A stretch of DNA of 64,000 nucleotides from Eledone cirrhosa. Lineage: Eukaryota. The number at the start of each line of letters is the position of its first letter. Positions within the stretch are counted from its first letter, which is position 1. The notes below the pieces were generated by a model. The model worked only from the letters and a program-made list of their open reading frames with translations. It made no database searches and was not told the origin of the DNA. The stretch covers positions 23,312,001 through 23,376,000 of the forward strand of contig OZ024759.1 of NCBI GenBank assembly GCA_964016885.1, in the 5' to 3' direction. Positions 565 through 63,470 of this stretch are shown piece by piece. Position numbers and translations under genes: made by a program.

Positions 565-1014
565 TTTAACCTTGTCAATAATAGTTTCATATTTCCAATT
601 GACTGCCGAAAATGTAGCGCCAATTTGTACACTGCGGAGCTGAGTTCTGTCAACAATACCATCAATGGCGGCTTTGACGAATATGAGTGTCTCTCTCTTC
701 CATGACATCTTGTTTGTGTTATAGAGAGCACCACATGATTTAACTAATGGTGAGAGCGGGCGTGAGCTGTTGTCACTGTCATTTGACATGGAAGTGTGTT
801 CTGGATTGGACATAAACACCACTTGGACAATAACTTCTTTGCTTGGACACTTGATCTCTTTAGATTTGGAACTACGAAGGAAAGCTTTGATGTTCACATG
901 GCATCCTTTGTTTCGAGAATATTTAGGACAAAAGAGTCTCGGTGGAACCAAGCTCTGTATATGAATTGGTTGTGCTTCTGACCCTTCTTTCAATTTGATT
1001 TCTTTGGTTAGAAC
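565..1014 (-). CDS. Exon B16 (450 nt): pre-VWD domain, ...PPRLFC...IKCP...QVVF...DGIVDR
   Basis: AG/GTAAGT, phase 0 end; paralog of A16; gene continues off-window. Confidence 0.88.

Positions 1015-63470: not shown

Follow-up and report, generated by a model that had tools for sequence, protein, structure and literature searches.

Several described proteins resemble, in different parts, the predicted giant protein treated here. The likeness to VWDE lies in a VWD domain followed by a Vwde domain (PF26129) and EGF, together with Ig_VWDE (PF25776) in homologues, as far as VWDE is described in excerpts of two papers (PMC7390686, PMC9117669). In the Atlas, the structures nearest to the core of a one-unit paralogue are mollusc clusters named VWDE-like (TM 0.75–0.76). 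However, VWDE is a secreted protein with one VWD domain and an EGF array, whereas the giant has 14 VWD domains, at most one EGF per unit and a transmembrane (TM) anchor, with F5/8C, PAN and LamG-like domains in slots. D8C_UMOD, found in 83–96% of two VWDE-named Atlas clusters, is listed for no model of the giant. No vertebrate VWDE sequence is among the matches listed, and the giant is called VWDE-like by its domain content.

FCGBP contains 13 tandem VWD domains, and in 11 of them there is an Asp-Pro self-cleavage site, with the pieces held together by disulfides; it is secreted and is composed of VWD-C8-TIL-E assemblies (excerpts of PMC10880436, where GDPH cleavage in MUC4-type mucins is also cited). 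The Asp-Pro of the giant lies at the same structural position, judging from the model of a paralogue. By contrast, the ~1,000-aa unit of the giant combines Ig, IPT and EGF with a slot domain, and its motif is mostly NDPH. Neither C8 nor TIL gives a Pfam match in the 22 homologues scanned. At the position of C8, the paralogue model has a four-helix domain, but EGF and IPT come next.

The giant shares with MUC4-type mucins the topology of a type-I membrane protein, a Pro/Thr/Ser-rich (PTS) stretch, a DPH-bearing VWD domain and EGF near the membrane. MUC4 has one VWD domain, a long PTS array and NIDO and AMOP domains, whereas the length of the giant comes from folded repeats; NIDO and AMOP are absent from the Pfam scans and the precomputed domain lists of the homologues. 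Drosophila Dumpy consists of EGF-DPY repeats and a ZP domain. It is a giant membrane-anchored repeat protein in apical matrix and is comparable in size class and likely tether role, but it reaches 23,000 aa and would be homologous to the giant in EGF at most (PMC8520396, in part). The sea star protein Sfp1 also mixes F5/8C and lectin domains with VWD and EGF in a precursor cut into subunits by self-cleavage; it differs in being a 426 kDa secreted footprint protein with C8, and LamG-like, PAN, IPT and TM segments are unlisted in the excerpt of its description (PMC7037938).

The giant thus has a VWDE-like core and resembles FCGBP, MUC4 and Sfp1 in parts, while being a member of none of these groups. 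Its component domains are all known and its sequences are public. An earlier note on this DNA, made from the sequence, suspected that the architecture is undescribed, and no description of the array was found in the literature searched, largely papers outside subscription journals.

Exon structure of the window

The window is the whole 64,000-nucleotide stretch of Eledone cirrhosa DNA analysed here. On its minus strand, 33 predicted exons run from 63,470 to 565, all with AG/GT ends, and make up two modules, A and B. The exons are as follows.

A1, 63394..63470 (−), 77 nt: VWD start of module 10, with Cys-x4-Asp-Pro-His (NDPH)
A2, 61947..62010 (−), 64 nt: VWD
A3, 58739..58945 (−), 207 nt: VWD
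A4, 56685..56796 (−), 112 nt: VWD
A5, 55638..55746 (−), 109 nt: VWD end; Pfam VWD 31.8 bits (cut-off 22.9)
A6, 53196..53389 (−), 194 nt: cysteine-rich linker, with 53238 as a second possible in-phase donor
A7, 52358..52470 (−), 113 nt: linker
A8, 51239..51397 (−), 159 nt: helical (Vwde/C8-like) domain; helices in the paralogue model
A9, 49902..50079 (−), 178 nt: helical domain end and EGF start
A10, 48733..48920 (−), 188 nt: EGF end and IPT/TIG part one
A11, 46154..46336 (−), 183 nt: IPT/TIG part two
A12, 41940..42054 (−), 115 nt: small cysteine-rich repeat, which closes the natural unit
A13, 40243..40550 (−), 308 nt: LamG-like domain, half one
A14, 39008..39332 (−), 325 nt: LamG-like domain, half two
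A15, 37752..37984 (−), 233 nt: first Ig domain, which resembles Ig_VWDE in homologues
A16, 36850..36942 (−), 93 nt: first Ig domain end
A17, 34990..35394 (−), 405 nt: second Ig domain, modelled in the paralogue with a PapD/ASH-like fold
B1, 33928..34004 (−), 77 nt: VWD start of module 11, with NDPH
B2, 31527..31590 (−), 64 nt: VWD
B3, 29216..29428 (−), 213 nt: VWD
B4, 27500..27614 (−), 115 nt: VWD
B5, 25772..25880 (−), 109 nt: VWD end; Pfam VWD 22.4 bits, slightly below the cut-off
B6, 25219..25415 (−), 197 nt: cysteine-rich linker
B7, 23907..24013 (−), 107 nt: linker
B8, 21487..21642 (−), 156 nt: helical domain
B9, 19861..20041 (−), 181 nt: helical domain end and EGF start
B10, 18939..19117 (−), 179 nt: EGF end and IPT part one
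B11, 13631..13834 (−), 204 nt: IPT part two
B12, 8498..8612 (−), 115 nt: small cysteine-rich repeat
B13, 5853..6494 (−), 642 nt: entire LamG-like (ConA-like jelly roll) domain, by ESM Atlas, model and fold search
B14, 4029..4252 (−), 224 nt: first Ig domain
B15, 2278..2370 (−), 93 nt: first Ig domain end
B16, 565..1014 (−), 450 nt: second Ig domain; phase-0 donor; the orthologue continues into VWD 12

We rebuilt the chain independently by listing the minus-strand frames, reading the exon ends and placing small exons with a splice-site matrix. The result is the same in-phase, stop-free chain as in the earlier note: the spliced frame is 6,189 nt, its phases chain unbroken and it has no stop. The repeat lengths claimed there (1,021 aa for A and 1,042 aa for B) and the size pairs of paralogous exons (77/77, 64/64, 109/109, 115/115 and 93/93 nt) are all recovered. 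Intron phases are shared as described, since 16 of the 17 A introns have a B partner at the same position and phase; the sole difference is an extra intron (39333–40242) within the LamG-like domain of A, which has no counterpart in B. In BLASTP, modules A and B align across 1,041 columns at 32% identity; the local score of the pair is 1,493, whereas 50 shuffles reach 66 at most. The junction 34990/34004 is recovered as well, but it joins A17, not A16, to B1, because A counts 17 exons and B counts 16.

At the 3′ end of exon A6 (53196–53255, −), a run of Ser/Asn triplet repeats offers a choice of in-phase donors, 53238 and 53196. Alignment with the O. sinensis orthologue favours 53196, the longer form, giving 1,021 aa for A. 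The exon chain opens at an acceptor and closes at a phase-0 donor, and the spliced protein contains 21 N-glycosylation sequons. Among sequencing runs, those listed as containing the window are three of unrecorded kind from one sample, and none is an RNA run. Their contigs on 33,900–40,600 are swamped by intronic repeats; the pieces listed over A15, A16, A17 and B1 have a depth of ~4–9 with 0–6 differences, and A13 is uncovered, so these contigs bear on neither expression nor copy number. The window is a genuine gene segment, with its splicing predicted from sequence. The three seam introns contain hydrophobic stretches, but these look low-complexity and have no counterpart in the orthologue, and the idea that TM or signal exons are concealed there was rejected by informal judgement.

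Domains of the repeat unit

In Pfam scans of 24 single exon frames, VWD and a weak EGF are the only meaningful matches; LamG has no match among these frames, and neither Vwde nor Ig_VWDE has one on single window exons. Both of the latter are listed for the O. sinensis orthologue. Ig_VWDE is above the Pfam cut-off in Aplysia, Elysia, Candidula, Pomacea and Pecten, and PF26129, borne by the long homologues, is the family named Vwde in the Atlas.

Exon B13 scores 0.97–0.98 with Laminin_G_3 (PF13385) clusters in the ESM Atlas, and its structure model has a pLDDT of 89. In the fold search, the model gives Z scores of 12–19 to ConA-like domains (maximum 18.6; PAPP-A, 12.8; PTX3, 12.2) and 11–12 to classical laminin LG domains (laminin LG4-5, 11.9). 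The LamG-like domain also matches a Pfam-positive stretch of a Haliotis homologue (phmmer E values of 1e-14 and 8e-10). As modelled, this domain is a two-sheet ConA-like (PF13385-type) jelly roll of ~200 aa and not a classical laminin LG domain. The best folds found with B13 are the ConA-like subdomains of clostridial neurotoxin/NTNH, but a toxin meaning was dismissed, the identities being 9–19% and the fold being common. In a word-index search with B13 among proteins of 390–2,000 aa, none of the 946 candidates was retained.

The structure model used for the rest of the unit is that of the one-unit paralogue P0038 and not of the window protein (15-row alignment, pLDDT 73, pTM 0.48). A PapD/ASH-like Ig, VWD, a four-helix domain, EGF, IPT/TIG and a TM helix follow one another in this model. 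The VWD domain gives a Z score of 19 to MUC5B, VWF and MUC2, and the IPT/TIG domain gives a weak one (7), which agrees with the PF01833 entry of the O. sinensis protein.

One-unit paralogues are arranged as slot domains, Ig, Ig, VWD, Cys linker, helical domain, EGF, IPT, Cys repeat and TM, which places the start of the natural repeat at the slot and A17/B1 within a unit. The super-module proposed earlier (VWD-EGF-LamG-Ig) is real as a repeat, but its natural start is the LamG slot rather than VWD. Likewise, a ConA-like LamG domain is present in the window as had been proposed for each module, but elsewhere it is merely one of several slot fillers. The unit appears from these comparisons to be a constant Ig-Ig-VWD-helical-EGF-IPT-Cys scaffold plus one slot that is filled in a fixed order. 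Furin-like motifs are found in the linker of some homologues, and none is found in the window.

Homologous models and extent of the array

A profile of exons A17 and B16 matched 83 proteins, 13 of them longer than 400 aa. Twelve of these 13 have the unit, and one long match, with SUEL-lectin repeats, is unrelated. Two further searches gave 18 relevant proteins among the 120 matches listed (the other 102 were dropped for tenascin-type EGF similarity) and eight relevant out of eight.

The predicted O. sinensis model XP_029649426.2 (5,522 aa) is collinear with all 2,063 residues of the window and matches all 33 exons and nothing elsewhere in the window. Its identity with the spliced window is 67% over 2,068 columns with 23 gap positions, and 86 of 87 cysteines are kept; the corresponding module identity with Argonauta is 53%. 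The model passes the A17/B1 junction in frame; beyond the part matched by the window, it has another three VWD units, then a TM helix with a short tail.

The O. vulgaris protein CAI9738780.1 (6,425 aa) has a signal-peptide-like start (by eye), an F5/8C-like domain and eight VWD domains, and breaks off partway through an IPT domain. The accession after it, CAI9738781.1 (5,837 aa), begins at the following Cys repeat and has six VWD domains and a TM helix. Joined as annotated, the pair amounts to 12,262 aa, 1.38 MDa and 14 VWD domains, and the full chain with skipped exons filled is estimated at ~13,400 aa. Since the window corresponds to the second and third VWD of CAI9738781.1, it represents units 10 and 11 of 14. 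The further repeats that had been expected outside the window are thus found on both sides, with VWD 12 next in the orthologue, and the homologous models bear out one giant multi-module VWDE-like protein with old repeats.

Pieces of the array are found in cephalopods (Argonauta, O. bimaculoides, O. sinensis and O. vulgaris), gastropods (Gigantopelta, Aplysia, Elysia, Plakobranchus, Biomphalaria, Bulinus, Candidula, Bradybaena and Pomacea) and a scallop (Pecten). A complete form of two units, with a signal stretch and a TM helix, is found in the nemertean Tubulanus. One-unit TM paralogues are found in Lingula, Owenia, Lottia, Haliotis and others; a typical one contains F5/8C, EGF, one to five LamG-like domains, PTS, Ig and the VWD core. 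The idea of a lineage-specific protein does not hold against this distribution, with the array in an argonaut, Octopus, at least nine gastropod genera and a scallop, and the two-module form in a nemertean.

Two kinds of unusual relatives were also observed. P0096 of Lineus longissimus is a one-unit relative that ends in VWA and FN2 instead of a TM helix, suggesting a likely secreted form. The JGI proteins P0111 and P0112 combine the VWD-helical-EGF-IPT-Cys core with cadherin repeats, a TM helix and an SH2 domain; should they derive from non-animal holozoans, the core would be older than animals.

No multi-module mollusc model running from signal peptide to TM helix was retrieved (proteins up to 8,873 aa, predicted models only), and the array is always split across models. 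This would be expected if there were neighbouring genes or short isoforms, that is, a secreted 5′ gene (F5/8C, PAN and empty slots) and a membrane-bound 3′ gene (LamG), and no 13,000-residue chain. However, the breaks vary among species and fall mid-domain, which fits annotation breaks. Two Aplysia models share an overlap of 38 identical residues within a LamG-like domain, and the models of B. pfeifferi (7,323 aa) and E. marginata (6,500 aa) cross from the LamG-free part (led by PAN in B. pfeifferi) into the LamG part. The 3′ models, moreover, have no N-terminal hydrophobic stretch. Separate genes are accordingly an unlikely explanation, and we infer from the model sequences that the 5′ and 3′ database models belong to one gene. 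One giant membrane protein of about 12,000–13,500 residues and 14 units is likely. If it is one chain, it counts among the very large membrane proteins of animals and was overlooked because every annotation examined here breaks it into "uncharacterized" or "VWDE" pieces.

Slot series and predicted membrane anchor

Counted from the N-terminus, the slots hold F5/8C, two PAN, one or two PAN, nothing in three units, and LamG-like domains thereafter, and this order is identical in octopod, gastropod and bivalve models. PAN is above the Pfam cut-off in Pecten, Aplysia and Elysia; the Octopus PAN calls were made by similarity to Pfam-positive scallop and Aplysia stretches (E values of 3e-12 to 7e-4). 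The last unit is preceded in homologue models, outside the window, by a Pro/Thr/Ser-rich insert of 162–666 aa (46–68% P/T/S). Likewise outside the window, a TM helix followed by a cytoplasmic tail closes the 3′ models of O. sinensis, O. vulgaris, Pecten, Aplysia and Plakobranchus; in view of this ending in the models of five species, the protein is likely membrane-anchored and not, as the earlier note had supposed, secreted. From tip to membrane, the chain would present F5/8C, PAN-PAN, PAN, three empty slots and eight LamG-like domains, with the Pro/Thr/Ser-rich stretch before the last unit. A constant scaffold would thereby be combined with an exchangeable binding slot, and the slot order would be durable across mollusc classes.

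History of the array

A quick IQ-TREE analysis with SH-aLRT support was made on 45 VWD-to-Cys-repeat cores in a sample without squid, and a FastTree analysis of 76 cores gave the same clades. Two Argonauta cores 99% identical to others were excluded from the trees, and the IQ-TREE set was also without Biomphalaria, Elysia, Plakobranchus, most one-unit proteins and, in O. vulgaris, five cores that are almost the same as those of O. sinensis. Octopus units cluster by position with gastropod or scallop units for unit 1 (SH-aLRT 96), 2 (98), 3 (96), 4 (96), 5 (87) and the last unit (99). Modules 1–5 and 14 are, by these sequence trees, positional orthologues across mollusc classes, and the position-specific clades suggest that the ends of the array predate the class split. 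The mollusc classes separated over 500 million years ago.

Units 8 and 11 (SH-aLRT 99), 9 and 12 (95) and 10 and 13 (99) form pairs found only in octopods in this sample. Modules 8–10 and 11–13 are, as judged from the trees, an octopod-only duplication within the sample that is older than the Argonauta-Octopus split. Block-by-block identity across this three-unit duplication is modest (~39–47% versus 25–35%) and places its seam only approximately. Unequal crossing-over may have built the array out of a one-unit membrane protein, of which a paralogue is the surviving form. Separately, the adjacent Argonauta hians models P0001 and P0084 have a three-unit block in common at 99% identity, with a chimeric seam in which a B-like front is joined to a unit-8 back; this block is either a recent unequal crossover or an assembly duplicate.

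Asp-Pro-His motif and predicted self-cleavage

Asp-Pro-His is found in 74 of 82 VWD starts from 20 multi-module sequences, orthologues included, as 57 NDPH, 15 GDPH and two TDPH. The O. vulgaris pair has it in 12 of 14 VWD starts, and the two motifs of the window read NDPH. The Pro of the motif, as placed in the paralogue model, aligns with residue 4081 of FCGBP D10 and residue 169 of RGMB, with which their cleaved chains begin. In FCGBP, Asp and His are required for self-cleavage, a nearby Gln was also tested and Gly was not, and cleavage stabilises the VWD domain, as described in excerpts of PMC10880436. The same excerpts report a cis Gly-Asp bond at the cleavage site, suggesting that the Asn of NDPH may block cleavage. 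Most VWD domains of the giant may self-cleave at Asp-Pro, with the halves kept joined by the beta-1 disulfide as in FCGBP. This predicted, model-based self-cleavage is plausible, at a little short of an even chance, and the NDPH-bearing VWD domains would allow the need for the Gly of GDPH in self-cleavage to be tested directly.

Proposed function and alternatives

The overall explanation that we favour, with a probability of roughly 0.6, is a 14-unit membrane-anchored chain that acts as a long cell-surface tether and presents sugar-binding-type domains in a fixed order. Each unit would be a disulfide-braced scaffold (Ig-Ig-VWD-Cys linker-helical-EGF-IPT-Cys repeat) with a swappable slot, and the units together would form a long disulfide-braced rod, anchored in the membrane, that displays lectin-type domains in order. 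The slot domains (jelly-roll, PAN and F5/8C) are probably candidate sugar binders, by fold alone. The role would likely be that of a transmembrane mucin, with mucus or apical matrix anchored to the epithelium and spaced from the cell. The protein is thus a candidate anchor of mucus or apical matrix on mollusc epithelia, and an apical tether function has about an even chance. In its favour, a scallop digestive-gland transcript is labelled LOC117339040, the gene id of the orthologue, which is the single hint of expression (one table row of PMC8150855). We put forward only tentatively, and with clearly less weight, the fullest version: an unrecognised single-pass protein of ~1.4–1.5 MDa, which would rank with the largest known and in which an ordered 14-unit ruler of swappable lectin-type slots would have been kept since the cephalopod/snail/bivalve ancestor. 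It would cut itself at the non-canonical NDPH into about a dozen disulfide-linked subunits and would still be growing in octopods by three-unit unequal crossovers.

The TM anchor, the Ig/IPT/EGF rod and the LamG-like domains are also typical features of adhesion receptors, and the cytoplasmic tails contain Tyr in the gastropod and scallop models. A giant membrane protein might then link cells to each other or to sensory structures, as a junction or hair-bundle tether in the manner of Mesh or usherin, instead of anchoring mucus. However, fourteen units of ~1,000 residues would far exceed a septate gap unless folded, the PTS stretch and the Asp-Pro-His-bearing VWD domains are mucin features, and the tail in octopus is short and does not resemble the other tails. 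Such a link is improbable beside the cell-surface tether.

A fast-evolving recognition protein for gametes (zonadhesin-like) or microbes, each slot reading a different glycan, is the least probable of the alternatives: the modest identity of orthologous modules (67% and 53%) despite the kept cysteines, the repeated unit gains in octopods and the down-regulation of the scallop transcript after domoic acid injection (PMC8150855) would suit it, but the unit order kept across mollusc classes fits a structural ruler.

Intron content

The introns of the window contain retrotransposon and repeat material. A 312-codon open frame with a zf-RVT match (44004–44939, −; E 1e-5) is a retrotransposon remnant in intron A11/A12, and an RVT_1 reverse-transcriptase remnant lies just upstream of exon B16 (926–1849, −; E 2e-11 at 1442–1849). 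Two minisatellites are found, one of 53 copies of 61 bp at 15440–18665 (97% homogeneous) and the other of 14 copies of 93 bp at 8758–10030 (98% homogeneous). Directly after exon A9, at about 49900–49600 (−), there are decayed re-copies of the 3′ end of the exon with its donor, which are possible cryptic donors.
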